From sequence record OR352938.1: 64,000 bases of DNA; one strand, 5' to 3'. Below the pieces are notes generated by a model. That model was not told where the DNA came from and made no database searches. It saw nothing but the letters and a program-made list of their open reading frames with translations. Positions 3,367 through 49,010 of the stretch are shown here, one piece after another. The DNA is from Escherichia phage AV108. The first letter of the stretch is position 1, and the number at the start of each line of letters is the position of its first letter. The translations under genes and the position numbers were made by a program.

Positions 3367-3371
3367 TAAAA

Positions 3372-15053: not shown

Positions 15054-15085
15054 TTGATTCTCCTTTGTTTCGTTTCGATGGGGGT

Positions 15086-15114: not shown

Positions 15115-15121
15115 CTACTTT

Positions 15122-15394: not shown

Positions 15395-15438
15395 CCAATA
15401 ACAAAAAAGTCGCCACTATGGGCGACTTTGAACAAACA

Positions 15439-15915: not shown

Positions 15916-17078
15916 AGATATTTCCCGAATCGGTTGTAGTCGTCATCTGTTAAATCGGTATTAACCTGAGATACCAGATACATAATCTCTACTTCCTGCG
16001 CTGCATTCTGTACTTCGTCAGAGTTCAACCATTTACGCATCCACGGTAACGGATGACGACGAACACTAAACGGGCTTTTCAGTCCGGCAGCACGCATACG
16101 GGAATCTGCCAGGTATTCTACATAGGTTTTCAGAATTTCCGGTGACAGGTTAGGAATTGCCCCCATTGCGAATAGGTGGTCTACCCATTCTTTTTCTTGC
16201 TCGACAACATCCAGAAAGATTTTCGTTGCTTCGCCTTCAAGTTCTTCCGCAATCTGTTTCCACTCATCACCATCAACCCCCGTTTGCCATTGACGAATAA
16301 TGTATTGTGTGCCTTTTAAGTGAAGTTGTTCATCACGCGCAATAAATTTCATGATCTTCGCGTTACCTTCCAGTAAACCACGTTCGGCAAAGCTGAAAGT
16401 ACATGCAAAGGACACATAAAAACGAATTGCTTCCAGTGCATTGACGCAGTGTGCACACAGATAAATCGAAGCCATCAGATCTCGTTTTGTATCTTCAAAA
16501 AATCTTCTTGCATCATCTAATGCTGTCTGGTCGTCTCGTTCTTCCCAATAGCGGAGATCTTCTTTTGCATTCTCATACTTACGAATCCAATAAAGAACAT
16601 CATCATAATATTTCCCGATAGATTCCGCTCGCTTCATGATAGCAGGGTTATCGATGATCTGGTCGAACTCACTAGCCGGATCAATGAAACAGTTACGCAT
16701 AATGTGTGTATAGCTTCGGCTATGAATCGTTTCGCTGAATGTCCATGTTTGCAACCATGTATCGAGAGTTGGATCAGATACAATTGGACCAAATGCTGCG
16801 GACGGTGCGCGACCTTGAATAGAATCAAGTAATGTCTGATACTTCAAGTTTTCAGTAAAGAAACGCTTTTCAACGTCACCCATATTAAGATATTGAATAC
16901 GGTCGGTTGCAAGTGAAATTTCTTCGGGGCGCCAAAAAAATGACAGAGATTTTTCAATTAGTTCTTCAAATACTTGATGACGCTGAATGTCATAACGAGC
17001 GATACCTAAACCGCTACCCAGAAACATCGGTTCATTCATAATATCAACGTGTTCACGATTAAATACCGTATTTCCCAT
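15912..17078 (-). CDS. nrdB: ribonucleotide reductase small subunit
   Basis: collinear with T4 NrdB as recalled (VDIMNEPMF, ARYDIQRH, FFWRPEE); uninterrupted ORF, so no intron. Confidence 0.9.
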   Translation of the reverse strand: MGNTVFNREHVDIMNEPMFLGSGLGIARYDIQRHQVFEELIEKSLSFFWRPEEISLATDRIQYLNMGDVEKRFFTENLKYQTLLDSIQGRAPSAAFGPIVSDPTLDTWLQTWTFSETIHSRSYTHIMRNCFIDPASEFDQIIDNPAIMKRAESIGKYYDDVLYWIRKYENAKEDLRYWEERDDQTALDDARRFFEDTKRDLMASIYLCAHCVNALEAIRFYVSFACTFSFAERGLLEGNAKIMKFIARDEQLHLKGTQYIIRQWQTGVDGDEWKQIAEELEGEATKIFLDVVEQEKEWVDHLFAMGAIPNLSPEILKTYVEYLADSRMRAAGLKSPFSVRRHPLPWMRKWLNSDEVQNAAQEVEIMYLVSQVNTDLTDDDYNRFGKYL

Positions 17079-17753
17079 TCACATATTCCTCATTTTACAG
17101 TTATCAAAGTGCCATCGTAGAGCATTGCCTTTATTGGTAATTTTACCGCAATGCGGACAAGGATCTGCCACTGTTGCTTCCTTTGTCCTTTGTGCAATCA
17201 GCTTTATCATTTCCTCGCTATGTGGTATTCCTTTAGTTGGCGATGGTTTCCCAAACATAGGATTTTTACTTCCCATTCTAGCTTTTGAAATGTTTAACGC
17301 GTGCTCCTTTGTTTTTGGCTTACGCATTTTAGCTTTTGTCTCTTCTGATTTCAACACACCTTTCGAAGATTCGCTAATCTTTCTTCGCGTTTCTTCTTTC
17401 ATCGGCTTGCCCTTTCTTTGTTCAGAGATAAGTACCCTAGCTTGTTCATATACCCTAGACGAAACAATATAATCTCTTTTATTGGTCTTCGCATTTTTTG
17501 CTAAACACATCATACCAAATGCTTGTGCCATAGGTCCACCATGAATTTTTGCTAGCAGATGATGAATCACGAAATGTTCTTTTGCTGTCAAATCAATCAG
17601 GTTATCAACTTCATCACCGCCACCCATAGATCTCGGTAAAATATGATGTGTTTCCTTATATCCTTCAACGGTTCCTCTTATCTTTGCTTTTTCTATGATT
17701 GCGTCATGTAATTTTTGTAAGTTCATGAATAAATCCTCGTTTCTGTATACCAT
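17079..17753 (-). CDS. mobE: HNH homing endonuclease (MobE-like by position)
   Basis: HNH core THHILPRSMGGGDEVDNLIDLTAKEH; C-terminal basic repeats and CPHCG zinc knuckle; inserted between nrdA and nrdB exactly where T4 carries mobE. Confidence 0.6.
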   Translation of the reverse strand: MVYRNEDLFMNLQKLHDAIIEKAKIRGTVEGYKETHHILPRSMGGGDEVDNLIDLTAKEHFVIHHLLAKIHGGPMAQAFGMMCLAKNAKTNKRDYIVSSRVYEQARVLISEQRKGKPMKEETRRKISESSKGVLKSEETKAKMRKPKTKEHALNISKARMGSKNPMFGKPSPTKGIPHSEEMIKLIAQRTKEATVADPCPHCGKITNKGNALRWHFDNCKMRNM

Positions 17754-28209: not shown

Positions 28210-28217
28210 TATAAATA
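28210..28217 (+). promoter_or_regulatory. T4-type late promoter (TATAAATA)
   Basis: exact TATAAATA 29 nt upstream of the gene 34 start, followed by AAGGAG RBS. Confidence 0.6.
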
Positions 28218-28245: not shown

Positions 28246-31200
28246 ATGGCAGATTTTTCTCAACATTTCAAGGCCACATTTGGCTTTGACGCTGGTAATG
28301 AAAAGGTCGTCAATGTAGCATACGCAGATAAAAACACATCAACGGATGCGGTCAACGTTGAATTTTTCAATTACCATAATGGCATTACTCAGTATGACAC
28401 AACTCGCGGTTATGATCAATACGGAACTACAATCTATCAAAACCGTCCGTATTATGCAAAAGAAGATATCACAAAGCCAGCAGGTGATTTTGACCCGACT
28501 AAATGGCAAGCACTGCGCACGGACCCACGTTGGGATTATATTGCAGCAACTTCCGGTGATACTCCTTTACAGTCTGGTGATTATATCGCAGCAGATGGTC
28601 AATTTGCAAACTTGACTTTCTCTATGCCAACTAAACCAGCAGAGGGAGACACTATAACAGTAAAAGATATCGGTGGCAAGTGTGGTGTTAACGAATTATC
28701 GTTCTTGAGTACAGGACATGAGTTTTACCATAACGGTAATGTGTACAACCGAAAATGGTATTGCACTACCCCGTATGCAATGAACTATTTCATCTTTGTT
28801 CGTAATCGTTGGCATGTTTATCAGACAGGAACAGAGCCACGCGGTGTGTACGCACAGCCAGCGATTGATGCTATTCAAATGCAGAATGGTGATCAGGTAT
28901 TTCGTCGTAGTTCGTTGGGTAATATTACCTTAGTGCTTCCTAAGTTTGCCAACAATGGCGACATGATCCAGACTACAGACCTTGACGGATTAACCGCAAC
29001 CAACCACGTTACGGTTAAAGTTCATGAGCACGCAGAAGAACAATCAATTGGCACGTCCGGTCTAAAAGAGATTATCGGTAAGCGTAGCGGTCATGGTGTA
29101 TTCATCTTTGACAAGACGGAAAACTTATGGCGTTTGTGGGATGGTGATCAGTCTGTTCGTCTTAAACCGATCATCGATGACACTCGCTTGCAACCTAATA
29201 GCTATGTTGCTGTATTTGGTGATCGTGATGTTACTCTGACGCTGCCGACCAATGTCGAGCCGGGTGATCGTATTCAAGTTTCTATGCAGTATATGAACGG
29301 AAACCAGAATTGCCGTATTATCGCCGCCACAGAGGATACAAAAATCCTTATGCAGAAAAACATGGTTCAGTTTCCTAAGCGTAGCGAGTACCCATTCAAT
29401 GGGACCGATACATGGACGGGAGTATCTGAATTGTCTTTCAACGCTGCAAATGATTATGTACCTTATCTGGAGTTCTCTTATTCAGAAGGTGATGATGGTA
29501 AGAAATACTGGTTGGTGGCACATGCTCACCCGATTGTAGAACGAGTAGATCCGACTCGTAAAGATCGTGTTGGTGTAATTGCACTGGCTACCCAAACTGA
29601 AACGAATAAAAACCATGAAGAGAATCCTAGCGACGAAGTTGCAGTAACACCAAAAATGCTGGCTAATAAAACCGCCAACGAAACTCGACGCGGTATTGCT
29701 CGCATTGCGACTCAAGCGGAAACGCATCAAGATACTGGTTCCAACTTCCTGGATGATGTTATCGTTACGCCTAAAAAGTTAAATGACTGTGTTGCTACCG
29801 AAGCCCGTCGTGGTGTGATGGAAATTGCAACCCAGCACGAAACCAATGAAGGTTTAGACGATACCCGCGCTATTACTCCTAAGAAATTAGAAGAACGTCG
29901 CGCTTCCGAAGATCTCGCTGGTATTGCTGAAATTGTTCAGGCTGGCGGCAGTGCTGCCGCTCGACGTGGCGAAGCTGGTACAGGGATCTATAACATCAAT
30001 GACCATGCTAAAATTGTTACGCCAAAAAACATCAACGAAGTCAAGGCGACCGAAACTTCCCGTGGTGTTGGCTATCTGGCAACTGACGCGGAAGTGCAAG
30101 GGGCTACAGAATCAACCCCGCAAGATGCTTTACTCATCACGACTCGCACGCTAACGAAACGTACTGCTACCGAATCGCGCACTGGTATCGCTGAAATTGC
30201 AACTCAGGAAGAAACAAACTTAGGTCAAAGTGATAACCATATCATCACGCCTAAAAAGTTGCATACTCGCCGCGCAACGGAAACTTTACACGGTTTAGCA
30301 GAAATTGCAACTCAGCCGGAATTTGACGCAGGTCGTGACGATGATCGCATTTCTACCCCATTGAAGATTAAAACCTTCTTTGAGAATGCACAGCGTTTGA
30401 AAGTAGATCCGACTCAGGGGCTTAACCTTACTGGTGATTTGTGGCAAGGTATCATGATCAGCGGTCTGGATGCAACCGAAGATACAAAAGGTGTCGCTAA
30501 AGTTGCGACTACTCAGCTTACTGACGCTGGTCAAGATGATACTACAATCATCACGCCTAAAAAGCTGCAAGGCAAAAAGGCCACCGAAGGTAAAGAAGGT
30601 ATTATCCGAGTTGGTACTCAAGCCGAAACCGTGGCTGGTATTATGGACAATGTAGCAATTTCTCCGAAGAACTTCAAATATGTTGTTCAGACAGAGGATA
30701 CATGGAAAGCAACCGAAGCGCGTCGTGGATTCTTGAAAGTTGCTACTCAGGAAAACTGTTTTGTTGGTGATAATCTGCAAGGTTCTACTCAAGAACTAGG
30801 AAACTACCAGCATGACGGAATTGCTGTTACCCCTAAAGGATTAAACTACGCACTTGCTAATTTCTTACCTAAGATGGCAACCGCTCAGAATAGTTTGAAA
30901 TTGGGTAACGTAGAGGCCTCTAAATGGGCGCGTAGAGACATTGATCAGACCATAGAGAGCAATTACACGTTTAATAAAAACGTTAACGTGAAGGGCGATT
31001 TAGAGTGCTTAAAATCAGGTTCCTTTGAAACTCTGTCTGTGACTAAGAACTCGACCGATGTTCCGAGTAATGGTCATCTGGTGTTGGGTGAGCGTGGAGT
31101 TGACGGTCACACCGGAATTACTCTGCATGGCACAACCGCATCGGAAGGCATGAAAAACTCTTGGTCTATTATCGTTGGTGGTACTGGAACAGCGCAAGTT

Positions 31201-31986
31201 GTTGATAGTGATGCTATCGCTTTCGGTAAAATCAATGATGGTGGAGTCGTTGAGCATTACGCCTTTGCTATGAAACACAATGGCGACGCGACAGCATATA
31301 GAGACTTTATTGCAGGTCGTAACCTGTATGCGAAACAAGGCGGTTTATACATTGTTGACCAGTCTAATCCGGCAATGACTCGTTCCTCAGATGGTATGCT
31401 GAATATCGGTCACGGTGGAAGTGTTAACATCAAGGCAGGTCATCAAACGTTAACTACAGAGATCGCCGGACAGAAATATCAGATCGTACACGCAGGAAAC
31501 GCCGACGAAGTTCTTAACCGTCAGTTTGTTAAGAATGCTGGCGATACAATGGTCGGTAAGCTGACTATGGATAATGCGCCTATTGTTTCTGTTAAGCATG
31601 AAGCTAGCGCGGCAACCGCTCCGGCAATCGGTAACATCGGTTTCTGGAATATGCGAGTTACTACCCAGAACATCAAAGAAACTTATCCAGAGAAGAAAAA
31701 CGGTACTCTGATGCAATGGGGTACTGACGCGGACGGGCTTACCCAGCTTTGGTCCCCTGATGGTACTCATAAACATTATATCCGTTCCGGTACTGGTGGT
31801 CAATGGACCGCATGGGGTGAAATTTACACCAAACAGAATAAGCCTACCGCTCAGGAAATCGGGGCAGTAGTTGCAGAAGGTGGTTTAATGAACTCTATGA
31901 CGGTTCGTGATTGGATCAAAGTTGGTAATGTTAAAATCATCGCCAATAATCTGACTCGTACCGTAGACTTTATCTGGGAAGACTAA
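28246..31986 (+). CDS. 34: long tail fiber proximal subunit
   Basis: 1246 aa; collinear with T4 gp34 as recalled, including the repeated ATQxETNxG ... ITPKKL modules and C-terminal RDWIKVGNVKI. Confidence 0.92.
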   Translation: MADFSQHFKATFGFDAGNEKVVNVAYADKNTSTDAVNVEFFNYHNGITQYDTTRGYDQYGTTIYQNRPYYAKEDITKPAGDFDPTKWQALRTDPRWDYIAATSGDTPLQSGDYIAADGQFANLTFSMPTKPAEGDTITVKDIGGKCGVNELSFLSTGHEFYHNGNVYNRKWYCTTPYAMNYFIFVRNRWHVYQTGTEPRGVYAQPAIDAIQMQNGDQVFRRSSLGNITLVLPKFANNGDMIQTTDLDGLTATNHVTVKVHEHAEEQSIGTSGLKEIIGKRSGHGVFIFDKTENLWRLWDGDQSVRLKPIIDDTRLQPNSYVAVFGDRDVTLTLPTNVEPGDRIQVSMQYMNGNQNCRIIAATEDTKILMQKNMVQFPKRSEYPFNGTDTWTGVSELSFNAANDYVPYLEFSYSEGDDGKKYWLVAHAHPIVERVDPTRKDRVGVIALATQTETNKNHEENPSDEVAVTPKMLANKTANETRRGIARIATQAETHQDTGSNFLDDVIVTPKKLNDCVATEARRGVMEIATQHETNEGLDDTRAITPKKLEERRASEDLAGIAEIVQAGGSAAARRGEAGTGIYNINDHAKIVTPKNINEVKATETSRGVGYLATDAEVQGATESTPQDALLITTRTLTKRTATESRTGIAEIATQEETNLGQSDNHIITPKKLHTRRATETLHGLAEIATQPEFDAGRDDDRISTPLKIKTFFENAQRLKVDPTQGLNLTGDLWQGIMISGLDATEDTKGVAKVATTQLTDAGQDDTTIITPKKLQGKKATEGKEGIIRVGTQAETVAGIMDNVAISPKNFKYVVQTEDTWKATEARRGFLKVATQENCFVGDNLQGSTQELGNYQHDGIAVTPKGLNYALANFLPKMATAQNSLKLGNVEASKWARRDIDQTIESNYTFNKNVNVKGDLECLKSGSFETLSVTKNSTDVPSNGHLVLGERGVDGHTGITLHGTTASEGMKNSWSIIVGGTGTAQVVDSDAIAFGKINDGGVVEHYAFAMKHNGDATAYRDFIAGRNLYAKQGGLYIVDQSNPAMTRSSDGMLNIGHGGSVNIKAGHQTLTTEIAGQKYQIVHAGNADEVLNRQFVKNAGDTMVGKLTMDNAPIVSVKHEASAATAPAIGNIGFWNMRVTTQNIKETYPEKKNGTLMQWGTDADGLTQLWSPDGTHKHYIRSGTGGQWTAWGEIYTKQNKPTAQEIGAVVAEGGLMNSMTVRDWIKVGNVKIIANNLTRTVDFIWED

Positions 31987-32019: not shown

Positions 32020-33159
32020 ATGACACAAGATATAGAATTACGCAATACTGGAATTAGGTTTGCGCATTTCGACGAAGACTCTGCGACATTTACCAGCATT
32101 TCAGAAAATAACTCTGTGATGTATAAGCTGGAAGTGCGCGGATCTAATGCGGATTCTACCAAACCAGCAAGGATTAGATTTAATGGAGTGGAGATCGTTG
32201 GCACTGGCTATGAAAATGGCCTAAATTTTAAAGTTCTTACTCCAACTGGACAACTACACGAAGAAAAGGTATTCTATGGTCGCGGTGCTGTTTTGGCAAT
32301 GCGTGATTATCTTTCTTTGCTGAAAGGTGACTATATCATTGCGATGGCAACGCATGGAGAATTGTTTGCAGATCCGATCAGTGATGGTGTATTCTCTAAG
32401 CTGGGATCTGTATCATTCCCGAATCACATTTTGCTACAGCAAATGCCTCGTGTATCATATGCAGCAATTTATTCTACTAAAATGGGTAAAATTGTGTGCG
32501 AAGGGATGCAAGCAACTCACGGGGAAGGACAAGATTCATCTATACAAATTGAGAAAGTCTATGATACTATAGATGATCTTGCTATAACAGGAACACCACA
32601 ACGATTTTTAGATTATCCGGTTGAGTATGTTAGCGAAGATGCCGAACATTTCGAGCTAATACAATGGCCTCATGATGAGACCAGCGCCCCACTTGAGGAT
32701 TTTAACATAAAGGCAGGTGACAAACTATCAATATCCTTTGAATTGTTCCGTGATAGTGCCGCAGCCGCAGCCAACGTAACAGCGCGTTTCTATCACAACT
32801 ACTTCACCGATGGACAATATCAAACTGGTGTTCGATACAATGCCAGCAAAAAAGACCAATGGGAAAAGTTTGAAGCCGTCTATACCGTACCGGAAGGAGT
32901 TGATAGTGTAGTAACTGGTTGTATCAGATATCCAACCAACTCCAATGAAGGTATTGTTAAAATTAGAAACATACTAATAACGCCGATCAGTGGAGTCGTC
33001 AAAACTACTGGTCCTACTTCATTTGGTGTTAATGGTGTTAGAACAACTCATATTCAGGATAACGGTGATTTTACTAACCCTGTAATGAGTCTTCTTAAAC
33101 TACCCAGAGATAATAAACACATCACATCCAACAACTTTAAAGAGTTCGATGTTGATTAA
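32020..33159 (+). CDS. 35: long tail fiber hinge protein
   Basis: 379 aa, by size and position between 34 and 36. Confidence 0.7.
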   Translation: MTQDIELRNTGIRFAHFDEDSATFTSISENNSVMYKLEVRGSNADSTKPARIRFNGVEIVGTGYENGLNFKVLTPTGQLHEEKVFYGRGAVLAMRDYLSLLKGDYIIAMATHGELFADPISDGVFSKLGSVSFPNHILLQQMPRVSYAAIYSTKMGKIVCEGMQATHGEGQDSSIQIEKVYDTIDDLAITGTPQRFLDYPVEYVSEDAEHFELIQWPHDETSAPLEDFNIKAGDKLSISFELFRDSAAAAANVTARFYHNYFTDGQYQTGVRYNASKKDQWEKFEAVYTVPEGVDSVVTGCIRYPTNSNEGIVKIRNILITPISGVVKTTGPTSFGVNGVRTTHIQDNGDFTNPVMSLLKLPRDNKHITSNNFKEFDVD

Positions 33160-33169: not shown

Positions 33170-33200
33170 AAGCCGATCCATGTGGTCGGCTTTATTTTTA
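33170..33200 (+). terminator. rho-independent terminator after gene 35
   Basis: hairpin AGCCGA-N9-TCGGCT followed by TTTATTTTT. Confidence 0.55.
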
Positions 33201-33320: not shown

Positions 33321-33328
33321 TATAAATA
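33321..33328 (+). promoter_or_regulatory. T4-type late promoter (TATAAATA)
   Basis: exact TATAAATA 33 nt upstream of the gene 36 start. Confidence 0.6.
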
Positions 33329-33361: not shown

Positions 33362-34852
33362 ATGGCAGATTTGAAATATGGATCTACTGTAGGTGGATCT
33401 CCCATTTGGACGCAAGGAAACTTGACGATCCAGCCAGCGGGGGATCAGCTTTTCTACAAAGGTCATAAAATCTATACCGCTTTTGATAGACCTTCGGCTA
33501 CCGATTTTGATGCTGTTAGTGCATCCGAAGGTGGCACATTTCAAAAGCAAGTTCATTTCGAGGAAGGTTTAAGCGTAGGTAGCGCATCGGCTGGAGAAAC
33601 CAAAAAGAATGGTATCTTTAAAGGTCAGAGCGACGCTGCTAATTTTGACGGCGTAAGCTGGGGTTTGCATTCATGGAAGTCAATCGGCTTTGTTAATGCC
33701 CGTGATGGCGTTATTATGGCGTATATTGACACCACAACGGGCGAATTTAAGTCTAAAGGGACTATCGAAGGGACAACCATTAAAGACACAGGTCAACGTG
33801 TCTATAGCCCTGTTAATAAACCAACGAATAATGATTTGGATTTAGTTTCCCGTCGCGGTGATACTCTCTCAGGAACGTATAATTTAAACACTGTCACTGT
33901 TAAACTATCGGTTGATTCGAAATTAATTGCAAGGGAACGTGATTTAATTAATTTTGATGCGACTAAGATCTATTATGGTAACGTTCTTGATACGTTGGTC
34001 TTCCGAAGTAAAGATGAGCCTACCATTTTTGTTAATGGCAGAGAAGGTCGTTTTTATCACACCAACAATAAACCAACTAAAGACGATGTTGGACTAGGCA
34101 ATGTCACCAATGATGCACAGGTTAAACGTGCTGGTGATATTATGGAAGGTAACTTGCAAGCGCCTAGAATGTTGGCGACAAACGATCCCGCTGGTCCTAA
34201 TGAATTGGTTCGTTTGAGCTACTTTGAGAAAAAATCAATGGTGGCAAATCCAACCATCATTGGAAATGTTGATTGGAACACTCTTATTAATCGCGGTATC
34301 TATCGTGTGGAAAATGCTGGGTCTGGTACTAATAAACCGTCTGATAGCTATTATAACGGCGTTTTGATGGTATATCGCCCAGAAGATGCGGTCGGTACTC
34401 GTCGAATTGTTCAGGTGTATTATCCTGAATCTATTGACCATCCTATGTGCTGGCGTTCGTGTTCTAATGAATCCTGGACTGCATGGAACTATGTAGATCA
34501 CCGTAAATTAGCCGATATTCGCTATGTTAACGTAACTGGCGATACCATGACAGGACCGTTAACTGTTCCGGCTGCAAATGGCGTTAGAACAGCTAAAACT
34601 AACTATAACGGGGATAACTGTTATGCGGCGTTAAGCGGTGCTGATGGTACTGCTATGATTCACCGCATTAGTGATATTAAAGGGACCGAAAAGCTGGGGA
34701 TCACCCACGACTCAAAGGTCGTGTTTTTCCGTTCTAGAAACAATACTCAAACCGTGGACCGCTATCAGCTTTATCATGAAGGTAATAAACCTACTCCGGC
34801 TGATGTTGGAGCGGTTCCACTTAATGCGGTGATTGATTTTGGTACTTTCTAA
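33362..34852 (+). CDS. 36: long tail fiber distal subunit (small), enlarged
   Basis: N-terminus MADLKYGSTVGGSPIWTQGN matches T4 gp36 as recalled; 496 aa against 221 aa in T4. Confidence 0.8.
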   Translation: MADLKYGSTVGGSPIWTQGNLTIQPAGDQLFYKGHKIYTAFDRPSATDFDAVSASEGGTFQKQVHFEEGLSVGSASAGETKKNGIFKGQSDAANFDGVSWGLHSWKSIGFVNARDGVIMAYIDTTTGEFKSKGTIEGTTIKDTGQRVYSPVNKPTNNDLDLVSRRGDTLSGTYNLNTVTVKLSVDSKLIARERDLINFDATKIYYGNVLDTLVFRSKDEPTIFVNGREGRFYHTNNKPTKDDVGLGNVTNDAQVKRAGDIMEGNLQAPRMLATNDPAGPNELVRLSYFEKKSMVANPTIIGNVDWNTLINRGIYRVENAGSGTNKPSDSYYNGVLMVYRPEDAVGTRRIVQVYYPESIDHPMCWRSCSNESWTAWNYVDHRKLADIRYVNVTGDTMTGPLTVPAANGVRTAKTNYNGDNCYAALSGADGTAMIHRISDIKGTEKLGITHDSKVVFFRSRNNTQTVDRYQLYHEGNKPTPADVGAVPLNAVIDFGTF

Positions 34853-34862
34853 TTTTAGCGGG

Positions 34863-34882
34863 GATTATCTCCCCGCTTTTCT
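34863..34882 (+). other. stem-loop between genes 36 and 37
   Basis: AGCGGGGA-ttat-CTCCCCGCT then U-run; gene 37 has no TATAAATA of its own. Confidence 0.45.
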
Positions 34883-34922
34883 AAATAATATTATTCTAAT
34901 AACCGTTTAAGGATTTTATAAA

Positions 34923-37844
34923 ATGGCAGATTTAAGCAGAATCCAATTTAAACGCACTAGCACTAAAGGTCGTAAACCGGATGCTAGTACGATGAATCCG
35001 GGGGAATTGGCAATCAACCTTGCGGATCAATATCTTCTTACTAAAAATGATTCCGGTGATATTATCAATTTAAGTTGTCCTCCGGTGTATGACCGCGATG
35101 TTACAATGGCGGGTAAGGTTAAAGGTAATAATTATATCTTAAGTAAAACCGCTAACTATCTGGAAGATCAGACAGCGAGAGATCTTAACTACTTTGGCGC
35201 TTTCCGTACCAATGGTCTTGATGGTCTTCTCGAACTCACGCTAAACGTTCCTCACTCTTACGGCGTCCAACATGGTCGAGGATTTACTTTCCAATATGGG
35301 CACACTGGATCGCGTGTAGAAACTTATGGATACAATAAAGAAGGTCAAAAAGCATTTAGCTATAAAATGTATCACGAAGGTGATAAACCTACTCCCTCAG
35401 AATTGAACGTTTATAGCAAACAAGAAATTGACAGAATGTTTATTAAAAACGTTAAAATGTCTGTTCCTTCCGGTGACGCAACTCGTGGTTACTTTAAGAT
35501 CGCGACCGCAATGATTCCTCAGAATAATGGTCGAATGGCATTTTTACGGATTTACGGCGGAAACGGATATAATGTTAACTCCTACGATCAGGTGGAGTTC
35601 CTTGAAATTGTGATTCGTGGTGGTAATAATAACCCTAAAGGTGTTAGTATTGCTGCATATCGTCGTAATTCTTTGAACGTCCATGAAGTATTTGCAATTA
35701 ATACTTCCGGTGATAACTATGACATTTATGTTAACTATGGTCGTTACACCGATAACGTTATTGTAGAGTTTGGAAAAACTGTTGATGTTGCATTGACTGT
35801 TCACGATGTTCCTGAATTTTCGGCGACTAAACCCGCAACCGGAACTAAATTTGATGCTCGTGTTATTACGATGTTCAACACCGAAAACAAAGCCGGAACG
35901 TTGATGTTTGATAATAACGGTCAAGGAACATATGATATTATCAGCTTGAATAACTCGACTGATATCAATAAAAAATATCTTCGTAAGTTTCGTAGCAAAT
36001 CCACAGAAACAATATGGCATGAGGTTGTCGAGGGTAGCGTATATCGTTTAGCTACTGGCGTTACTGATCAGTCAGACCAACTAAAAATTGATTTTAATGG
36101 GGTTACTGTAAATCGTCTTTTCGTTAAGGGAAATAATGCTATCAGAATGGAGCGTAGAGACGGACAAAGTAATTACCTAGAATTTTATGATTATCGTTCC
36201 GGTGCTAACCGCCGTCAAGGTTATCTAGGGTATGGTGACGGTACTACTAACACCGTACAGTTAGTAAATGAATTAACGGAAGGTAATAACTCATTAAGAC
36301 TGGATGATACTGGTCAGGTTACGTTGTCTGTAGGCAAAACAAAAATTGTATATACCAACGGACAATATTATTCCGCTAACTCTGATGCATATCGTATGAT
36401 CTATGGCAATTACGGTGCATTCTGGCGCAATGACGGGACTAAAGTTTATCTTCTTTCCACCGAAGAAAATGACCATTTTGGTGGATGGAACGGCAACCGA
36501 CCATTCATTTACGATTTGACGACTGGTAAAGTTACTTTAGGTGGTGACGGTAACGAAGGTGCATTAGTTCTTGAAAGAGATAGCCGTGCTGCTAGATTTG
36601 CTGGCGACATTTACGTTGGCAAAGGGATGTTAACATTTGATGCCGGACGATTAAATTCTCGTGATTACTTCCGGTTTAACCATTGGGGCGATAGCAATAA
36701 CGCTCGTGATAACATCTTACAGCTTGACGATAGCAAAGGCGCACACTTCACCACTGAACGTACTTTAGCAACTGGTGCAATTAAAACTAAATTCTTCGGT
36801 GATTTGGAATCTGCTGGTCAAATTAAATGGGGTAAAGGGACCGCCACATCTACGTTTACTCTACGTGTATGGGGTAACGATAGTCGTAAACAAATATTTG
36901 AATGCGGCGATGAAAGCGGGTGGCATTGGTATACCCAACGAGCGGGGGGTCCTGGTACAAATGATATTATATTCAATGTTAACGGGAAATTTCAATCTCA
37001 GGGTTTTGAGACTTCCGGTAATATTAAGATAACTGGTCCAGACCTTGAGTTTCGTCGCACTGGTAATAAGCATATCTGGTTTAGAGATCCAAACGGCTTA
37101 GAGTTAGGCGTGATGTACTGCGATGATGCTGGTGCTATTCGCTTCCGTGGTCAGAAACAAGCCCAGTCGTGGAAATTTGCAGATAAAATGATCCAGTTGG
37201 AATCTGGTACTGTATCCGGTGGCGGTAATGGCCTGATTCGTGGTGAAGTTGCTGGCGGTAGTTGGGCTAGCTGGCGTGACCGTGCTGCTGGCCTTATGGT
37301 TGGGTGTCCTCAATCAACCAATTCCGCTCATAACATCTGGAAAGCTACTCATTGGGGTAAATATCACATCGCAGCAATGGGTGTACACGTTCCTAGCGGT
37401 ACTATCGGTAATGCTATAGCTCGCCTAAACGTTCATGACGCCAACTTTGACTTTAGCGCCTCCGGTGACATGTCGGCAGGGCGTAACGGTTCGTTTAACG
37501 ATGTGTACATTCGTTCTGATGCTCGCCTGAAAATCAATAAGGAAGAGTATAAAGAGAATGCCACCGATAAAGTTAATCGCTTGACGGTATACACCTATGA
37601 CAAGGTTAAATCTTTAACCGACCGTACTGTCATTGCTCATGAAGTTGGTATTATTGCTCAGGATCTTGAAAAAGAATTGCCGGAAGCCGTAACAACTTCT
37701 AAGATCGGAGATCCAGATAATCCAGAAGAGATCTTAACAATTTCTAACTCTGCTGTCAACGCTCTTTTAATTAAGGCGTTTCAGGAAATGAGCGAAGAAT
37801 TGAAAGCCGTTAAAGCTGAACTAGCGGAACTTAAAAAGAATTAA
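34923..37844 (+). CDS. 37: long tail fiber distal subunit (large), with a C-terminal chaperone-like domain
   Basis: N-terminus MADLSRIQFKRTSTKGRKP matches T4 gp37 as recalled; C-terminal 130 aa carry an SDARLK motif and coiled-coil tail like peptidase S74 intramolecular chaperones. Confidence 0.85.
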   Translation: MADLSRIQFKRTSTKGRKPDASTMNPGELAINLADQYLLTKNDSGDIINLSCPPVYDRDVTMAGKVKGNNYILSKTANYLEDQTARDLNYFGAFRTNGLDGLLELTLNVPHSYGVQHGRGFTFQYGHTGSRVETYGYNKEGQKAFSYKMYHEGDKPTPSELNVYSKQEIDRMFIKNVKMSVPSGDATRGYFKIATAMIPQNNGRMAFLRIYGGNGYNVNSYDQVEFLEIVIRGGNNNPKGVSIAAYRRNSLNVHEVFAINTSGDNYDIYVNYGRYTDNVIVEFGKTVDVALTVHDVPEFSATKPATGTKFDARVITMFNTENKAGTLMFDNNGQGTYDIISLNNSTDINKKYLRKFRSKSTETIWHEVVEGSVYRLATGVTDQSDQLKIDFNGVTVNRLFVKGNNAIRMERRDGQSNYLEFYDYRSGANRRQGYLGYGDGTTNTVQLVNELTEGNNSLRLDDTGQVTLSVGKTKIVYTNGQYYSANSDAYRMIYGNYGAFWRNDGTKVYLLSTEENDHFGGWNGNRPFIYDLTTGKVTLGGDGNEGALVLERDSRAARFAGDIYVGKGMLTFDAGRLNSRDYFRFNHWGDSNNARDNILQLDDSKGAHFTTERTLATGAIKTKFFGDLESAGQIKWGKGTATSTFTLRVWGNDSRKQIFECGDESGWHWYTQRAGGPGTNDIIFNVNGKFQSQGFETSGNIKITGPDLEFRRTGNKHIWFRDPNGLELGVMYCDDAGAIRFRGQKQAQSWKFADKMIQLESGTVSGGGNGLIRGEVAGGSWASWRDRAAGLMVGCPQSTNSAHNIWKATHWGKYHIAAMGVHVPSGTIGNAIARLNVHDANFDFSASGDMSAGRNGSFNDVYIRSDARLKINKEEYKENATDKVNRLTVYTYDKVKSLTDRTVIAHEVGIIAQDLEKELPEAVTTSKIGDPDNPEEILTISNSAVNALLIKAFQEMSEELKAVKAELAELKKN

Positions 37845-37885
37845 GGAAAATCCCAGGGAAGGGAAACTACTAAGGAGAAACGGCT

Positions 37886-38125
37886 ATGGTCTATAATATC
37901 GTCATTGGTGCTTTGTCTAGTTTCGGAATGAAACTATTATCAAAGTTAATTAGTGAAAAGATGCTCACTAAAATTTTCTTCTATTGCGCTCGTCGTCTTG
38001 CGGCCTATACCAATACGCCAATTGATGATCGTTTCGTGGAAGAACTTTATAAGGAGTTTAATAAAGATCAGTCAGAAGATAGTAACGAGCAAGATAAACC
38101 TAGTGATAGTCAAGTACCTAAATAA
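37886..38125 (+). CDS. hypothetical small protein at the gene 38 position
   Basis: 79 aa, AAGGAG RBS, hydrophobic N-terminus; no resemblance to T4 gp38 seen. Confidence 0.4.
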   Translation: MVYNIVIGALSSFGMKLLSKLISEKMLTKIFFYCARRLAAYTNTPIDDRFVEELYKEFNKDQSEDSNEQDKPSDSQVPK

Positions 38126-38158
38126 GAGTACACTGTCATAGTTATCTTAGGGCATTAT

Positions 38159-38815
38159 ATGCAAGTTTCTGAAAAAGGGAAAGACTTTGCTATCTCAAAT
38201 GTCCTGCGCGCTATTTTCACAACTAAAAGCACGGAGTTGCTCGTACTTCGTGTTTTTGCTGCCGTCGTGTTGTCCATATTGGCATTTGTCGTTTATAGTA
38301 AAAACGAGTTATTTGCGCTTTATAAAGAGACTCGTTATGAGACTTATGCTCACATTCTCCAGGTAGAGAAAGACCGCAATTTTGATAATGCAGCACAGGA
38401 GCAGTTACAGATAGTTCATGTGTCGGCTGATGCCGATTTTTCTGCTGTTTTTAGTTTTCGTCCGAAAAACCTAAACTATTTTGTTGATTTGGTGGCATAT
38501 GAAGGAAAGCTACCGCATACAATCGATGAAAAAAATTTAGGCGGATTCCCTATCAATAAAACGAGTGAAGAATATCGTAGGCATCTTTTAGGTAAATCAT
38601 ATTTTACCGATAAAGATTTCCAGTATATTCCATCAAGAGAAAAGAAATTAGAGAATATCGATATAGGTTTCATGTATTCTTGTCCTATATTCAATCTCGA
38701 TAATGTCTATTCTGGTAGTATCGCCATTTCATGGAAGAATAAACCGGATATTGACATTGAGAATTTAGATACTCTTTGCAATCAATCTGCCAGAATCCTC
38801 GGAAGGATTAGATAA
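38159..38815 (+). CDS. t: holin
   Basis: 218 aa, collinear with T4 holin T as recalled (EQLQIVHVSADADFSAVFSFRPKNLNYFVDLVAYEGKLP, MYSCPIFNLDNVY, ARILGR). Confidence 0.88.
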   Translation: MQVSEKGKDFAISNVLRAIFTTKSTELLVLRVFAAVVLSILAFVVYSKNELFALYKETRYETYAHILQVEKDRNFDNAAQEQLQIVHVSADADFSAVFSFRPKNLNYFVDLVAYEGKLPHTIDEKNLGGFPINKTSEEYRRHLLGKSYFTDKDFQYIPSREKKLENIDIGFMYSCPIFNLDNVYSGSIAISWKNKPDIDIENLDTLCNQSARILGRIR

Positions 38816-45362: not shown

Positions 45363-45695
45363 TTATTGTTCTACAGTATAACCGTTGTTTTCAAGCCATG
45401 CAATAACAATCTTTTCGCCAATTTCATCGAGCATTTCATCAGAGCCATATTCTTTGATGAAAATCGATGGATCGTTATTGCTTACTACGTGCTGGATCAC
45501 AACATGTTCAGGAATTGCGTCTAGCAGTTCGCTATGATCATACTCATTAACGATATCTTCAACACTAACATTATTAACCAAATCAACATCATCCATAGTC
45601 ACAGTAACGCGACCGGACGGACGCAATGAATATTGGCTACTTTCAACTTCAACATGTGCACTTTCGCAAGTAACTTTCATATCAACCATAATCAA
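45363..45695 (-). CDS. strongly acidic small protein (DNA-mimic candidate)
   Basis: 110 aa with about 23 Asp/Glu against about 5 Lys/Arg. Confidence 0.45.
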   Translation of the reverse strand: MIMVDMKVTCESAHVEVESSQYSLRPSGRVTVTMDDVDLVNNVSVEDIVNEYDHSELLDAIPEHVVIQHVVSNNDPSIFIKEYGSDEMLDEIGEKIVIAWLENNGYTVEQ

Positions 45696-45703
45696 TTCCT
45701 CTG

Positions 45704-46705
45704 TTAGTAATGGCTAAAACCTTCGGTCACATCTTCAACCACATAGTAACGATGACAGCGCATTTTGGCATTTGCATAATCTTTCGGGATACTTACAACG
45801 TGACGCGGATCAACTTTGCATTTAATGATTCGGCCTCGTCCACCGCCATAGTGAGGAATATAGTGTTTCGCTGCAACGTGGAGGCCATTAGAGCAAGTGC
45901 GATCATCATCTGGGTCCACGTCTTTACGCTTCATTTTAACCGTGCGCCCTGGGCTATTATCAAACGTATGCGTAAAGAAATCTTTATAATCAACATCAAC
46001 ACGTTTCCATGCATAGAAACAACCATCTTCCCCGATCTCAATGTCGTTGTGCTCTAAGAAGTCAAACAGACGATCTACGGCCTTACGGCTAGGGTTTTTC
46101 TTGCACTTCTCAAAGAAGTTCAGATAGTGCGTATATGGCTTATTCTCTTTAATCGACTCCACAACTCGACGAGTCAGATTATTATCAAGAACAATATTAT
46201 GATAATACACAATACCATTTTCGATACGGAAAGCGCCGTGATAATATACTTCAACCGCTTTCTTAATGTCAATCAGCGTAATTGCTTTAATAAAATCATT
46301 CTGCTTAACTGCTTCCAGTGCTTCATTAAAGTTAACATGCGACGGATCAGCAGTATAAACAATGTCACCACATGTAATAGTAATAAACTTAGTTGAGGCT
46401 ATTGCTACGATTTTTGAGGAAGTAGTCACGGGCTTTTTTGCGCGTTCACCGCCTTTTCCTTTACTGGTTTTACGGCGTGCTTTACGTTTTTCTAGTGCCT
46501 TGCGGCCTTCCGCTACTGCGTCTTTCTGGATCAATAATACACGGGAGGCAGTGCGACGAGATACACCAAATGCTGCCGCAAGTGCTTCGCGGGTAGTAAA
46601 CTTACCTTCGCCCCACTGTTTAGCCAGTTTGATTTGTTTCGCAGAATCCAGGCATTGAACGTTACGGTCAGAGACGGTGATTTTTGCTTTAGTCATAGTA
46701 TTCAT
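45704..46705 (-). CDS. rIIB: rIIB membrane-associated protein
   Basis: C-terminal blocks match T4 rIIB as recalled (SRKAVDRLFDFL, NDIEIGEDGCFYAWK, FDNSPGRTVKM, VVSIPKDYANAKMR, YVVEDVTE). Confidence 0.88.
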   Translation of the reverse strand: MNTMTKAKITVSDRNVQCLDSAKQIKLAKQWGEGKFTTREALAAAFGVSRRTASRVLLIQKDAVAEGRKALEKRKARRKTSKGKGGERAKKPVTTSSKIVAIASTKFITITCGDIVYTADPSHVNFNEALEAVKQNDFIKAITLIDIKKAVEVYYHGAFRIENGIVYYHNIVLDNNLTRRVVESIKENKPYTHYLNFFEKCKKNPSRKAVDRLFDFLEHNDIEIGEDGCFYAWKRVDVDYKDFFTHTFDNSPGRTVKMKRKDVDPDDDRTCSNGLHVAAKHYIPHYGGGRGRIIKCKVDPRHVVSIPKDYANAKMRCHRYYVVEDVTEGFSHY

Positions 46706-46758
46706 TCCTCTATTAGTTGGGCGACTATCGCCGCCCGATTCACATCATTATACCAGAA

Positions 46759-46890
46759 TTATTTTGCTTCGACAACCTTTCGGATTGTGCGGTCTGATAC
46801 ATTATAGATTCGTGCCAGTTCGCCTTTAGTCAAGCCGCGAGCGTATTGTTTACGGATGGTTTCTTTCTGGATAGCGGTCAGTTTAGTCAT
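46759..46890 (-). CDS. small helix-turn-helix protein (43 aa) between rIIA and rIIB
   Basis: ATG 46888-46890 with AAGAGGTG RBS; MTKLTAIQKETIRKQYARGLTKGELARIYNVSDRTIRKVVEAK; below the ORF-track cutoff. Confidence 0.45.
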   Translation of the reverse strand: MTKLTAIQKETIRKQYARGLTKGELARIYNVSDRTIRKVVEAK

Positions 46891-46901
46891 AATATCACCT
46901 C

Positions 46902-49010
46902 TTAAAATTTAACATTCTTAACCAGTTTCATAAAGTCTTGTGCGCGTTTGTCGTTATGCAGAATACGATACCAGTTATCTACAATATCATACAGTAACGG
47001 GCTATTATCTTTAAACTTCGCACAAACTGCTTTAATTCGTTCGTTTGCTGCCGTGAATTTTTCATCACAGATCTTTTTAGTTTCTTCGTCCATAATCCAA
47101 CGAGTATGAAGGAGTAACTTGGAAACCTCTTTATTATAATGACGACCGTACAGTCTGTCAATAAATTCTGGAACACAGCGTTCTAGTTCATCGTCATGAA
47201 ACAACATAGTGATCACACCCAGATATTCGCCATACCCCAGATGATTGGTCTTAACCTTCTTAGCCAGACCAGCCAGCTTACCGCGAACAAATTCTAGCGC
47301 ACATTCCAATTGTTCGTCAACGAGATATTTTTGTGTCTCGTTACGAGTAATAATATACTTTGTTACCCCGAAGTAGTCAAGCGCCGTGTGTAATGTATTT
47401 TCACTATAGATCGATTTACGACTACGGCTTTCGAATGCATCACCTACGCGGAACATGTGCAAGCCTGATAACTCGCGAATCTCTGCCGCTTTCATGTGAT
47501 GGCTGGTTTTATGCCAACTGTCACCAATCTTTTCCATAATATACACGTTAGGCAGCTTAGGAGTCGCTTCACGTTGTGTACGCTCGGTCTTCTCCGGTTT
47601 AACTGCTTTAGCACGCAGATCATCGGCCTCTGATACTTTAATAACGGTCATTTCAGAATCATCATAATACTGTTTGATGTACTCGAAAGTCTCCATATGT
47701 TTTTCGTTGTTCTGACGGAACACCAGTACCTTTTTATTGATGCCGTATTCCTGGACCATGCCGTTAAGAGTCAGTGCACGCAGTTTCGGTTTATCGGTAT
47801 CATCAATAAGACACGTAATATCTTCTTTATGCATCCATACAAAATGCGTAATATTGTATTGACTGCTAACGAAAGCAGGTCGCAATTTGCTGATTGTGTG
47901 TCGATGATGATACAGAGTATACACCTGACCTTCTACGTCATTAGGCGAATCTTTACCCGCATTCACAAACTTATTATAGATTGCTACCGGATCATCCCAC
48001 TGTCCGATCTTACCCATCTTGCTAATAATATTGCGTTGCGTCGATGAATACTCGCTCATAAATTGCGCAAGTTTACGCTCTGTTTTAATGTTGGCGATCT
48101 TCTCTTTAACCTTTTCCAACATCATTTCATTGATTTCTGCAATGCGTTTTTCGATGTTCGCTTTAGTCTCAATTGACAAGTGAACTTCTTCACGCGATGG
48201 CATCAGGTCCAGATCACCCAACTCAAAATTAATGTAAATGGTCTGGTGCTGGCGGTTTACAGCTTCTAACCATGTTCCGCGAACATATTCATACGGGATC
48301 GGATACTGGATCTTACCCATGATTGCATATACGACATAGGAATCGTTGTCACGCCCATTACACACATAATAATTATCAAAGCTAGGGAAATAATTAATTT
48401 CGATTGCATTGATATTTGGTTTGTGTTCCCCAAAGTGACGCAGTACAAATTGCGCTTCTCTATGCCATGTCTGAATATCTTTTTCTTTCACTGGAATAGT
48501 GATTTTCAGACCATTGTCTTCATAGGTCGGTTCGTCAAAAATCTGCACCATTTTCGGCATAGAGTTTTGCACAAATGCCGTAAAGCCATAAGCGCGACCA
48601 TTGTAATAGTTTACGATTGTAAAGGTGTCGGTATAGCTATAAGCAGACTTCGCACCCAAACCAAAAGACCCGATATAGTCATTAGTCTGGTCTTTTGTTG
48701 ATTCAAAGTAAACCGTAAACAGTTGTTCTAATTCTTTCTTAGACGGAATACCAGTACCATAATCACGCACAGAAAAATACGGTTCGATTGCAGTCGGTAA
48801 ATGAATATCAAACGGACGATCTAAGGTTCCGGCTTCTTTGTGAGTGTCGGTAGCATTGCACGAATACTCACGGACGCAAGCACGTTCACAATATTGATAA
48901 GTGTTCTTAGAAAGCACCATAAAAGCCTTGCTACTTGCTTTCAGTGAAAAATCAACCGCACCGCTCAAGTCACTGCCAAATACTTCTTCATTATCAATAT
49001 GCATTTTCAT
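46902..49010 (-). CDS. rIIA: rIIA protein
   Basis: collinear with T4 rIIA as recalled (EPYFSVRDYGTGIPS, FTVYFESTKDQTNDYIGSFGLG, YGFTAF); 702 aa. Confidence 0.88.
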   Translation of the reverse strand: MKMHIDNEEVFGSDLSGAVDFSLKASSKAFMVLSKNTYQYCERACVREYSCNATDTHKEAGTLDRPFDIHLPTAIEPYFSVRDYGTGIPSKKELEQLFTVYFESTKDQTNDYIGSFGLGAKSAYSYTDTFTIVNYYNGRAYGFTAFVQNSMPKMVQIFDEPTYEDNGLKITIPVKEKDIQTWHREAQFVLRHFGEHKPNINAIEINYFPSFDNYYVCNGRDNDSYVVYAIMGKIQYPIPYEYVRGTWLEAVNRQHQTIYINFELGDLDLMPSREEVHLSIETKANIEKRIAEINEMMLEKVKEKIANIKTERKLAQFMSEYSSTQRNIISKMGKIGQWDDPVAIYNKFVNAGKDSPNDVEGQVYTLYHHRHTISKLRPAFVSSQYNITHFVWMHKEDITCLIDDTDKPKLRALTLNGMVQEYGINKKVLVFRQNNEKHMETFEYIKQYYDDSEMTVIKVSEADDLRAKAVKPEKTERTQREATPKLPNVYIMEKIGDSWHKTSHHMKAAEIRELSGLHMFRVGDAFESRSRKSIYSENTLHTALDYFGVTKYIITRNETQKYLVDEQLECALEFVRGKLAGLAKKVKTNHLGYGEYLGVITMLFHDDELERCVPEFIDRLYGRHYNKEVSKLLLHTRWIMDEETKKICDEKFTAANERIKAVCAKFKDNSPLLYDIVDNWYRILHNDKRAQDFMKLVKNVKF

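Follow-up and report, generated by a model that had tools for sequence, protein, structure and literature searches.

The long-tail-fibre gene block of Escherichia phage AV108: an RB49-like arrangement with a peptidase S74 end on gp37

Judged by its sequence, the long-tail-fibre region of Escherichia phage AV108 is the ordinary, previously described gene block of an RB49-like Krischvirus coliphage, and its large distal subunit gp37 ends in a peptidase S74 intramolecular chaperone. The arrangement is already known, and AV108 adds one more variant of a fibre that has been sequenced and studied experimentally in its relatives. We consider it highly likely that this fibre works as those of T2, T6 and S16 do, in that gp37 would trimerise, cleave off its chaperone and be capped by a separate gp38 adhesin, while the 79-residue product of the small gene behind g37 (here orf79) would serve as a lysis accessory. 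The analysis covered a stretch of 64,000 nucleotides from record OR352938.1 (the window). This stretch holds no g38, which we attribute to the limit of the window and not to this type of genome.

Layout and transcription of the block

The genes of the block, with the two preceding fibre genes given for context only, are as follows.

28246..31986, + strand: g34, proximal long-tail-fibre subunit, 1246 aa (ORF, syntenic with RB49 gene 34; context only)
32020..33159, + strand: g35, proximal hinge connector, 379 aa (PHROG 1154, E=4.8e-126; context only)
33362..34852, + strand: g36, distal hinge connector or short distal fibre subunit, 496 aa, 54.5 kDa (ORF, PHROG)
34923..37844, + strand: g37, precursor of the large distal fibre subunit, 973 aa, 108.3 kDa (ORF; PHROG 1699, E=1e-188)
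37886..38125, + strand: orf79 (RB49ORF251w, Dc5), 79 aa, 9.1 kDa (PHROG 402, E=5.5e-20)
38159..38815, + strand: t, T-type holin, 218 aa, the right boundary of the block (Pfam Phage_holin_T, E=4.5e-61)

Megablast of the whole region of interest (positions 33362-38125) placed FL37 nearest, at 95.1% identity, and RB49 at 91.6%; AV108 is a distinct isolate, with FL37 as its best match at 95%. RB49 and other Krischvirus phages share the order 34-35-36-37, RB49ORF251w/Dc5, t at 88-95% nucleotide identity, together with the S74 end of gp37 and the small ORF before t, and by megablast Krischvirus genomes are collinear with both ends of the window. In RB49 gene 36, ORF251w and t encode 496, 79 and 218 aa, the same lengths as in AV108. 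The one diverged segment lies in gp37, which has 979 aa in RB49 against 973 here; the RB49 match comes in two pieces that together span 95% of the query.

Candidate transcription signals are found before g34, after g35 and before g36, and a ribosome-binding site before orf79.

28210..28217, + strand: T4-type late-promoter consensus TATAAATA, 29 nt upstream of g34 (consensus match)
33170..33192, + strand: terminator-like hairpin and T-run directly after g35, with a 9-bp stem of which 5 pairs are GC (consensus match only)
33321..33328, + strand: T4-type late-promoter consensus TATAAATA, 34 nt upstream of g36 (consensus match)
37872..37877, + strand: Shine-Dalgarno AAGGAG, 8 nt upstream of the orf79 ATG (sequence; conserved in FL15 and RB49)

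The late-promoter consensus occurs three times in the 64 kb, a count not above chance, and two of the three matches stand just upstream of g34 and g36; the meaning of these matches rests on their positions and not on their number. A scan from g36 to t for strong terminator-like sites found none, and only weak ones within coding sequence. Read in this way, g36, g37, orf79 and t probably form one late transcription unit starting at the promoter at 33321..33328. T4 likewise has an operon before t and late promoters before g34 and g36, and it shares with AV108 the homologous N-termini of gp36 and gp37 and the shaft domains.

gp37 ends in a peptidase S74 chaperone

The N-terminus of gp37 is 46% identical to that of T4 gp37. 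Further along, the shaft carries a trimerisation domain that also matches the T4 gp34 structures 4uxe and 5nxf (E about 1e-14, phmmer against the PDB). Full-length gp37 returned gp34-type shaft domains only in this search, and it took a PDB search restricted to the C-terminal 283 aa to bring up S16 gp37 (6f45_A, E=8e-5); that alignment lies mostly in the chaperone part, the mature tip just upstream of the cleavage site being weakly similar.

36291..36512, + strand: gp37 residues 457-530, Gp34_trimer-type shaft trimerisation domain (Pfam PF21446, E=4.3e-29)
37512..37517, + strand: predicted autocleavage site Arg864 / Ser865, codons cgt tct (position from sequence)
37515..37841, + strand: gp37 residues 865-973, peptidase S74 intramolecular chaperone, 109 aa, 12.2 kDa (Pfam PF13884, motif, predicted fold)
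37746..37838, + strand: gp37 residues 942-972, terminal helix with heptad pattern, the predicted coiled-coil tail of the chaperone (AF2, heptads)

The identity of the C-terminal domain is confirmed by profile, motif and model, and its autoproteolytic release is predicted. Peptidase_S74 (PF13884) aligns with residues 865-924 over profile positions 1-58 of 58 (E=1.4e-11) at 45 bits, where the curated cut-off is 22 bits. The motif S865-D-A-R-L-K870 (SDARLK, from nucleotide 37515) sets Ser and Lys five residues apart, and, following the literature, we take Ser865 and Lys870 to be the catalytic dyad. S865, D866 and K870 are invariant in an alignment of 32 homologous sequences reaching down to 27% identity.

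The AF2 model of the gp37 tip has a mean pLDDT of 73, with the chaperone part at about 80-94, and shows the predicted chaperone fold, in which a long helix at the C-terminus comes after a beta-rich core. Foldseek matched this model to MyRF ICA 7dc3 (probability 1.00, TMt 0.68), GA-1 3gud (probability 1.00, TMt 0.57) and K1F 3gw6 (probability up to 0.96). The terminal 31 residues are modelled as a single helix (H252-282 of the modelled fragment, pLDDT about 90) whose hydrophobic heptad a/d positions read N,F,L,L and L,M,V,L. In profile, Ser/Lys spacing, predicted fold and terminal helix gp37 resembles the S74 chaperones of K1F endosialidase (3GW6), the GA-1 neck appendage (3GUD), T5 pb1 and MyRF ICA (7DC3). 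The initial annotation had read this end as SDARLK plus a coiled-coil tail of the S74 kind, and the profile score, the motif at residue 865 with its invariant residues, the modelled helix and the fold matches all bear that reading out.

Work on K1F endosialidase is reportedly a precedent for a cut N-terminal to the motif serine. By analogy with K1F and T5 pb1, the cleavage point in gp37 is predicted to lie there too; for T5 pb1, PMC4690869 describes release of the C-terminal 133 of 1396 residues. In the accessible literature we found no demonstrated gp37 cleavage for any Krischvirus, and PMC9569957 asserts cleavage by citation. It could be argued that the domain is a degenerate remnant, a folding aid without cleavage whose coiled-coil tail stays on the virion, and the Pfam match does span just the 58-residue core. 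We hold this to be very improbable, because the Ser, Asp and Lys of S-D-x-R-x-K do not vary among the 32 homologues, AF2 gives all 109 residues of the domain the chaperone fold at high confidence, and a chaperone that was retained would block the tip where gp38 docks in S16 (6f45).

The gp38 adhesin of relatives lies far from g37

Neither type of gp38 is found in the window. A tblastn search with the RB49 gp38 adhesin against all 64 kb gave no match, and with T4 gp38 the best E was 1.2. Among relatives the adhesin was found in every case checked (RB49, FL37 and FL15), and megablast located its gene in 83 phage records. RB49 g38 is RB49p079 (45367-46143, 258 aa; Pfam GP38 E=7e-72 plus Gp38_N), and that of FL37 lies at 81526-82311; both proteins match the Pfam families GP38 and Gp38_N, at E about 1e-70, and the FL37 adhesin matches S16 gp38 (6f45_D) at E=8.6e-49, Krischvirus gp38 aligning with S16 gp38 over its full length. 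In RB49, FL37 and ~20 records with comparable coordinates g38 and g37 are about 55 kb apart, and a distant g38 in this genus is stated in PMC3157838 and in bioRxiv 10.64898/2026.04.02.716166; in FL15 g38 adjoins g37.

The expected locus, between homologues of RB49p078 and RB49p080, lies ~29 kb beyond the right end of the window, and stopping that far short would explain why the window holds no g38. In Cognac the counterpart of the right end of the window is 13115-17114 and g38 is at 46522-47280 (megablast). Extrapolating from these relatives, we infer that AV108 also carries gp38 at that locus.

An S74 domain is the normal partner of gp38 adhesins and not an alternative to gp38, since T2 gp37 has an S74 domain (1243-1300) with g38 directly downstream. 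The T2, T6 and S16 tips all have a gp37 S74 chaperone with the same S-D-x-R-x-K motif as AV108. The C-terminus of AV108 gp37 is 33% identical to that of T2 gp37 over 230 aa (E=3e-20), and the motif '...GNG.FNDVYIRSD.RLK' is common to AV108 gp37 and the gp37s of Tequatrovirus, so that by sequence the end of gp37, together with the stretch leading up to the cleavage site, appears homologous to gp38-capped gp37s.

A fibre with no gp38 at all, in which the mature gp37 C-terminus would itself be the receptor-binding tip as in the L-shaped fibre of T5 or endosialidase tailspikes, would agree with the absence of both gp38 types from the 64 kb, and many S74 fibres of other phages do bind receptors directly (T5 pb1, PMC4690869). 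The window stops before the distant g38 locus, however, and every Krischvirus relative examined has gp38, either about 55 kb off or, in FL15, next to g37. The residues around the cleavage site are conserved with the gp38-capped gp37s of the T2 type, and in RB49 receptor specificity and host-range mutations map to gp38 (E230K and Y231S; PMC9569957). We regard a gp38-free tip as very improbable.

The initial annotation had concluded that the phage lacks a gp38 homologue and that the tip probably folds autonomously. The relatives do not support the first conclusion, as a gp38-like partner encoded elsewhere is what this genus has, and the association of S74 with gp38 in T2, together with the RB49 mutations, speaks against the second. 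It had also called the tip unlike that of T4. This stands insofar as the window has no T4-type gp38 and gp37 no Collar or needle; it does not extend to an autonomous, gp38-free tip. T4 gp37 has Collar and Phage_fiber domains (PF07484, PF03335) and no S74, whereas AV108 gp37 matches neither of these and has S74, and the needle/collar tip of the T4 distal fibre is folded by the gp38 and gp57A chaperones. It is T4 that is the exception among T-even-like phages (PMC3157838).

An enlarged gp36

At 496 aa against 221 in T4, lengths that the initial annotation gave correctly, gp36 is typical of its genus and consists of a T4-like N-terminus and about 275 extra residues. It matches PHROG 16472 over residues 1-496 and PHROG 1425 at E=3.5e-54, and its homologues fall into 12 database clusters of 492-508 aa with 50-95% identity. 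The N-terminal homology to T4, with the precomputed PF03903 of close homologues, places gp36 in the T4 gp36 family on sequence grounds, although its own score with Pfam Phage_T4_gp36 (PF03903) is 21.2 bits, under the cut-off of 26.

33362..33874, + strand: gp36 residues 1-171, homologous to T4 gp36 1-184 (BLASTP 37% identity, E=4e-29)
34253..34501, + strand: gp36 residues about 298-380, predicted compact beta-rich inserted module, absent from T4 gp36 (AF2 model)

AF2 modelled gp36 poorly overall, at a mean pLDDT of 49, with confidence confined to residues about 298-380 (pLDDT 70-83); this module is conserved within the genus. On the poor model Foldseek gave weak matches to the T4 gp34 C-terminus and to the R1-pyocin fibre 6cl5, the latter with a probability of 0.97 but a TM of 0.14-0.19. 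Neither the gp36 sequence by itself nor a profile built from 10 sequences found a meaningful match in the PDB, and hhalign of the insert against 'pyocin knob' regions of E. coli prophages gave 31% probability. With that value, and a Foldseek TM below 0.2 that is no more than suggestive, we do not take a pyocin knob as the proven identity of the insert. NCBIfam produced no match on gp36, gp37 or orf79; the same library also fails to match a protein carrying the NCBI name 'pyocin knob domain-containing', so that its silence has no bearing on the knob reading.

The module, just distal to the knee, could be a functional binding site and not a spacer; we think this unlikely. Its role might then be that of a lectin-like O-antigen site, or of a whisker or capsid contact that controls fibre deployment. 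If true, such a module might partly account for the use of several unrelated O antigens by RB49-like phages, a result that PMC9569957 calls counter-intuitive for a small gp38.

orf79 most likely belongs to lysis

Only orf79 lies between g37 and the holin gene t on the ORF map. The initial annotation was right that a sole 79-aa ORF unrelated to gp38 follows g37, a pairwise comparison with T4 gp38 giving one 19-aa patch only, and mistaken in placing it at the gene 38 position: the order in FL15 is g37-g38-orf79-t, so the slot of gp38 is not one that orf79 occupies.

By sequence, orf79 appears to be a member of the PM2 gp-l family (PHROG 402 / PF26925). PF26925, 'Phage_PM2_Gpl', is precomputed on all close homologues (59-95% identity), while Pfam on orf79 itself gave noise only, with a library copy that lacks PF26925; a literature search on PF26925 found nothing. 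A representative-library search, of shallow reach with so short a query, gave 20 clusters of homologues at E<=0.001. PM2 P18 is putatively the ORF l product. The family occurs in the RB49 and Felix O1 groups, and it is in RB49 and Felix O1 that P18 homologues are reported as lysis genes (PMC1950889).

Gene order points the same way. The gene is directly upstream of a holin gene here, in FL15, L014, L017 and the Mooglevirus Mordin, and its family adjoins a holin or lysozyme gene in four lineages. In 7-11-like phages, though, its neighbours are head and tail genes and not genes for lysis. From this synteny and PMC1950889, orf79 is most likely a gene of the lysis cassette and not of the fibre, and it probably corresponds to the RB49 lysis gene reported as P18-like. 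RB49 also encodes the T4-type spanins pseT.2/pseT.3; we therefore rejected orf79 as the sole disruptor of the outer membrane, and any role in outer-membrane lysis would be auxiliary. The most hydrophobic 19-residue window of the protein averages only 1.45 (Kyte-Doolittle).

Its position right behind g37 and its strong Shine-Dalgarno sequence might instead suggest a fibre component, be it a small adhesin of a new type or a dedicated factor for assembly that took the place of gp38 at its locus. In Ounavirinae, members of the family do come after large tail-fibre genes, a Vibrio phage has one close to an S74 fibre gene, and Trojet et al. left open a possible adhesin or chaperone role for small ORFs after g37 in other T4-like phages. 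We nevertheless find a fibre role highly doubtful. The gene coexists with an adjacent gp38 in FL15 and in the metagenomic locus L017 (g38-orf79-t), and in L014 it follows an unlike 524-aa Gp10_C protein yet still precedes the holin gene. Its 95-100% conservation among Krischvirus records with variable fibre genes is unlike that of an adhesin, and its family is that of PM2 gp-l, with the PM2 P18 homologues of RB49 and Felix O1 reported as lysis genes.

Discussion

The fibre that we propose for AV108 would be assembled and matured as in T2, T6 and S16. The C-terminal S74 chaperones (865-973) would align three gp37 chains in register, and once the trimer has folded the Ser865/Lys870 dyad would cut each chain at Arg864 / Ser865, freeing a 12-kDa fragment and leaving a mature gp37 of 96 kDa. 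A gp38 adhesin with a glycine-rich polyglycine-sandwich would then cap the exposed blunt tip of gp37, and its hypervariable loops would bind the receptor, which in RB49 is OmpA or certain O antigens. By analogy with S16, release of the chaperone would thus uncover a docking site for a separate monomeric adhesin and not, as in the S74 proteins of K1F, GA-1, T5 or MyRF, the very domain that binds the receptor or acts as an enzyme. T2 has g38 adjoining g37, and the Krischvirus arrangement differs from it in gene order, not in protein machinery.

On the proximal side gp36 would link gp37 to the gp35 hinge. In this model its T4-like N-terminal 170 residues are followed by the about 275 extra ones, probably shaft repeats and one compact beta module. 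Mature gp37 would have 864 residues against about 1242 in T2, while gp36 has 496 against 219, and the longer gp36 may partly compensate for the shorter mature gp37: the combined chain length of gp36 and mature gp37 is 1360 here, 1247 in T4 and 1461 in T2. The product of orf79, grouped with the downstream holin gene, would act outside the fibre as an accessory lysis protein like PM2 P18/gp-l.

The region is otherwise textbook T-even-like biology. It does hold a lesson for annotation, in that an S74 domain on gp37 without a neighbouring g38 does not imply a fibre that lacks an adhesin. In Krischvirus the determinant of host range lies about 55 kb from g37, and finding it needs a genome-wide search.

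Distal tail fiber genes and their relatives

The long tail fiber genes occupy 28.2-38.8 kb of the window on the plus strand, and the coordinates and lengths given initially (33362-38125; 496 aa for gene 36 and 79 aa for the small ORF, orf79) proved exact.

Genes of the tail fiber block
28246-31986, plus strand, g34, 1246 aa
32020-33159, plus strand, g35, 379 aa
33362-34852, plus strand, g36, 496 aa
34923-37844, plus strand, g37, 973 aa
37886-38125, plus strand, orf79, 79 aa
38159-38815, plus strand, holin gene t (Pfam Phage_holin_T, E=4.5e-61)

Only three copies of TATAAATA, the T4-type late-promoter octamer, are present in the window; one precedes g34 by 29 nt and another precedes g36 by 34 nt. 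The latter, together with a terminator-like hairpin directly after g35, suggests that g36-g37-orf79-t form one late transcription unit. Within the block, gp35 residues 66-133 (32215-32418) gave a weak Pfam ILEI match (E=6e-4; 20.6 bits, under the cut-off of 27). Residues 174-327 of gp37 (35442-35903) matched PHROGs 3299, 21552 and 6722 (function unknown; E=1e-22 to 1e-37), which are not fiber-shaft families, and could form a globular domain of their own close to where gp37 joins gp36.

By megablast, 33362-38125 matched 86 phage records, the best being FL37 (95.1% identity, 100% coverage), W115 (93.5%) and RB49 (91.6%), all Krischvirus, and RB49 is annotated with the identical gene set (34, 35, 36, 37, RB49ORF251w/Dc5, t). 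At each end the window is collinear with genomes of Krischvirus, and its right end corresponds to Cognac 13115-17114 (gene 41, uvsX and the polymerase gene). The window is a mosaic: positions 1-4000 share 99.1% identity with FL15, Delraymugoa and Aragogtheria, but the closest relative of the distal fiber genes is FL37.

The enlarged gp36

T4 gp36 has only 221 aa. Residues 1-171 of AV108 gp36 align with T4 gp36 1-184 (37% identity, E=4e-29) and residues 251-294 with the C-terminal 45 residues of the T4 protein; the remainder has no T4 gp36 counterpart and carries repeats of the fiber motif Y-H-x-x-N-K-P-T. It also includes a compact beta module (residues ~298-380), the one part of gp36 modeled with confidence (pLDDT 70-83 vs a mean of 49). 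This module may resemble pyocin-type knob domains, for which hhalign gave a probability of only 31% and Foldseek matches of low TM. The 492-508-aa form is common to 12 database clusters, its ends being most conserved. Combined chain lengths of gp36 and mature gp37 are 1360 in AV108, 1247 in T4 and 1461 in T2, so that a long gp36 accompanies a short gp37, and we infer that the one compensates for the other. In a metagenomic relative (L014, 1722-3296) a 501-aa gp36 is followed by a 524-aa Gp10_C-domain protein, no gp37, and then orf79 and holin; this would be another distal fiber design built on the same long gp36.

The 79-aa ORF

A strong Shine-Dalgarno sequence (AAGGAG, 37872-37877) precedes orf79, and across most Krischvirus records conservation of the ORF is 95-100%. 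We rejected it as a stand-in for gp38: an adjacent gp38 and orf79 occur together in FL15, and metagenomic loci show the orders Gp38-orf-holin (L017) and gp36-Gp10_C protein-orf-holin (L014). It matches PHROG 402 (E=5.5e-20), and homologues are annotated with Pfam PF26925, 'Phage_PM2_Gpl'. The family is found in Krischvirus, Ounavirinae, 7-11-like Grimontviridae, Lahexavirus and Vibrio phages, with invariant F13, E24, FF31-32, T42-x-T44 and DD47-48; a library protein of 196 aa (P0184) holds six repeats of its T-x-T-P-x-D-D segment. Relatives sit after the large tail-fiber gene in Ounavirinae, before a small ORF annotated as holin in Mordin; after the lysozyme gene in Vibrio phages; and amid head and tail genes in 7-11-like phages.

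Homologues of PM2 lysis protein P18 are reported in RB49 and Felix O1 (Krupovic and Bamford, PMC1950889), and P18 contributes to outer-membrane disintegration (PMC6356626). On this basis, and taking PM2 ORF l as P18, we read orf79 with moderate confidence as a putative lysis-cassette gene. However, RB49 also encodes the spanins pseT.2/pseT.3, and the N-terminal helix of orf79 is only weakly hydrophobic. These T4-type spanins are annotated at RB49 128606-129321, and their AV108 equivalents should lie at about 11.8-12.5 kb of the window, minus strand.

The C-terminal chaperone of gp37

The initial annotation proposed an S74-like C-terminus for gp37, and this was borne out. Peptidase_S74 matches residues 865-924 over all 58 profile positions (E=1.4e-11; 45 bits vs a Pfam cut-off of 22). 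SDARLK starts at residue 865 (nt 37515), giving a C-terminal domain of 109 residues (12.2 kDa), and Ser865, Asp866 and Lys870 are invariant among 32 aligned homologues with identity down to 27%. The last 283 aa match the S16 gp37 crystal fragment 6f45_A (E=8e-5). Their AF2 model (mean pLDDT 73, about 80-94 in the chaperone part) ends in a 31-residue helix with hydrophobic heptad positions, and Foldseek against PDB found the MyRF ICA domain 7dc3 (TMt 0.68) and GA-1 chaperone 3gud (TMt 0.57), both at probability 1.00, and also K1F chaperone 3gw6. The assignment of an S74 domain to gp37 holds, and cleavage is predicted.

The tip likewise differs from T4, as had been claimed: T4 gp37 has Collar and fiber-repeat tip domains without S74. 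In contrast, S74 spans residues 1243-1300 of the 1341-aa T2 gp37, whose gene is immediately followed by g38, and the C-terminus of T2 gp37 aligns with that of AV108 gp37 (E=3e-20). A 303-aa protein from a 25.7-kb E. coli contig (P0163) starts gp38-like (Gp38_N and the first glycine-rich motifs) and ends as a gp37-like tip with S74 chaperone, being either a recombinant or a chimera from gene call or assembly.

Location of gene 38

In the 64-kb window, tblastn gave no match to the RB49 gp38 adhesin and a best E of only 1.2 for the T4 gp38 chaperone. RB49 carries g38 at 45367-46143, encoding a glycine-rich protein of 258 aa (Pfam GP38, E=7e-72, and Gp38_N) homologous to the T2, T6 and Ox2 adhesins. 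In FL37, the closest relative, positions 81526-82311 encode a 261-aa 'adhesin protein' that aligns end to end with S16 gp38 (6f45_D; E=8.6e-49). From megablast coordinates, g37 and g38 are about 54-56 kb apart in RB49, Phi1, ELT3, TB34, PTE-Eco09, pEJ01, SSG23, PHB13, GoldenSnicker, 011D4, Sf20, kaaroe and others. A g38 remote from g37 agrees with Trojet et al. (PMC3157838), and a 2026 preprint places Krischvirus gp38 ~55 kb downstream of gp37 (bioRxiv 10.64898/2026.04.02.716166). By extrapolation the AV108 locus would fall ~29 kb past position 64000, and gp38 is probably missing from the window because the window ends short of it.

FL15, kin of the window's left end, differs in its g37 3' end and adjacent g38. 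Its order (L012, PP400778.1) is g36 (496 aa), g37 (919 aa), gp38 adhesin (260 aa), orf79 and holin, and its distant locus (L013) is empty, a 62-nt gap at the place of RB49's g38. Krischvirus has two mutually exclusive g38 positions. At FL15 12660-14010 the 3' end of the 919-aa g37 is Tequatrovirus-like (...KYFKF), followed by g38, and comparison with window 37700-38200 showed a remnant of an RB49-type g37 end (AAAAAGAATTAA) between g38 and orf79. It looks as if a foreign g37-3'/g38 cassette replaced the g37 3' end in FL15 and the distant g38 was then lost.

Thus, of the initial interpretation, the S74 domain and the tip unlike T4 stand, but the absence of gp38 is not supported, given the distant g38 of RB49, FL37 and other Krischvirus, that of AV108 itself being extrapolated. 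Also wrong was the specificity determinant: RB49 host-range mutants map to gp38 E230K/Y231S (Efimov et al. 2022, PMC9569957). The same study reports that RB49 gp37 has a self-cleaving chaperone and that gp38 is attached once the chaperone is removed. This fiber arrangement has been reported more than once in RB49 and in its genus, and an S74 domain normally accompanies gp38 adhesins rather than replacing them.
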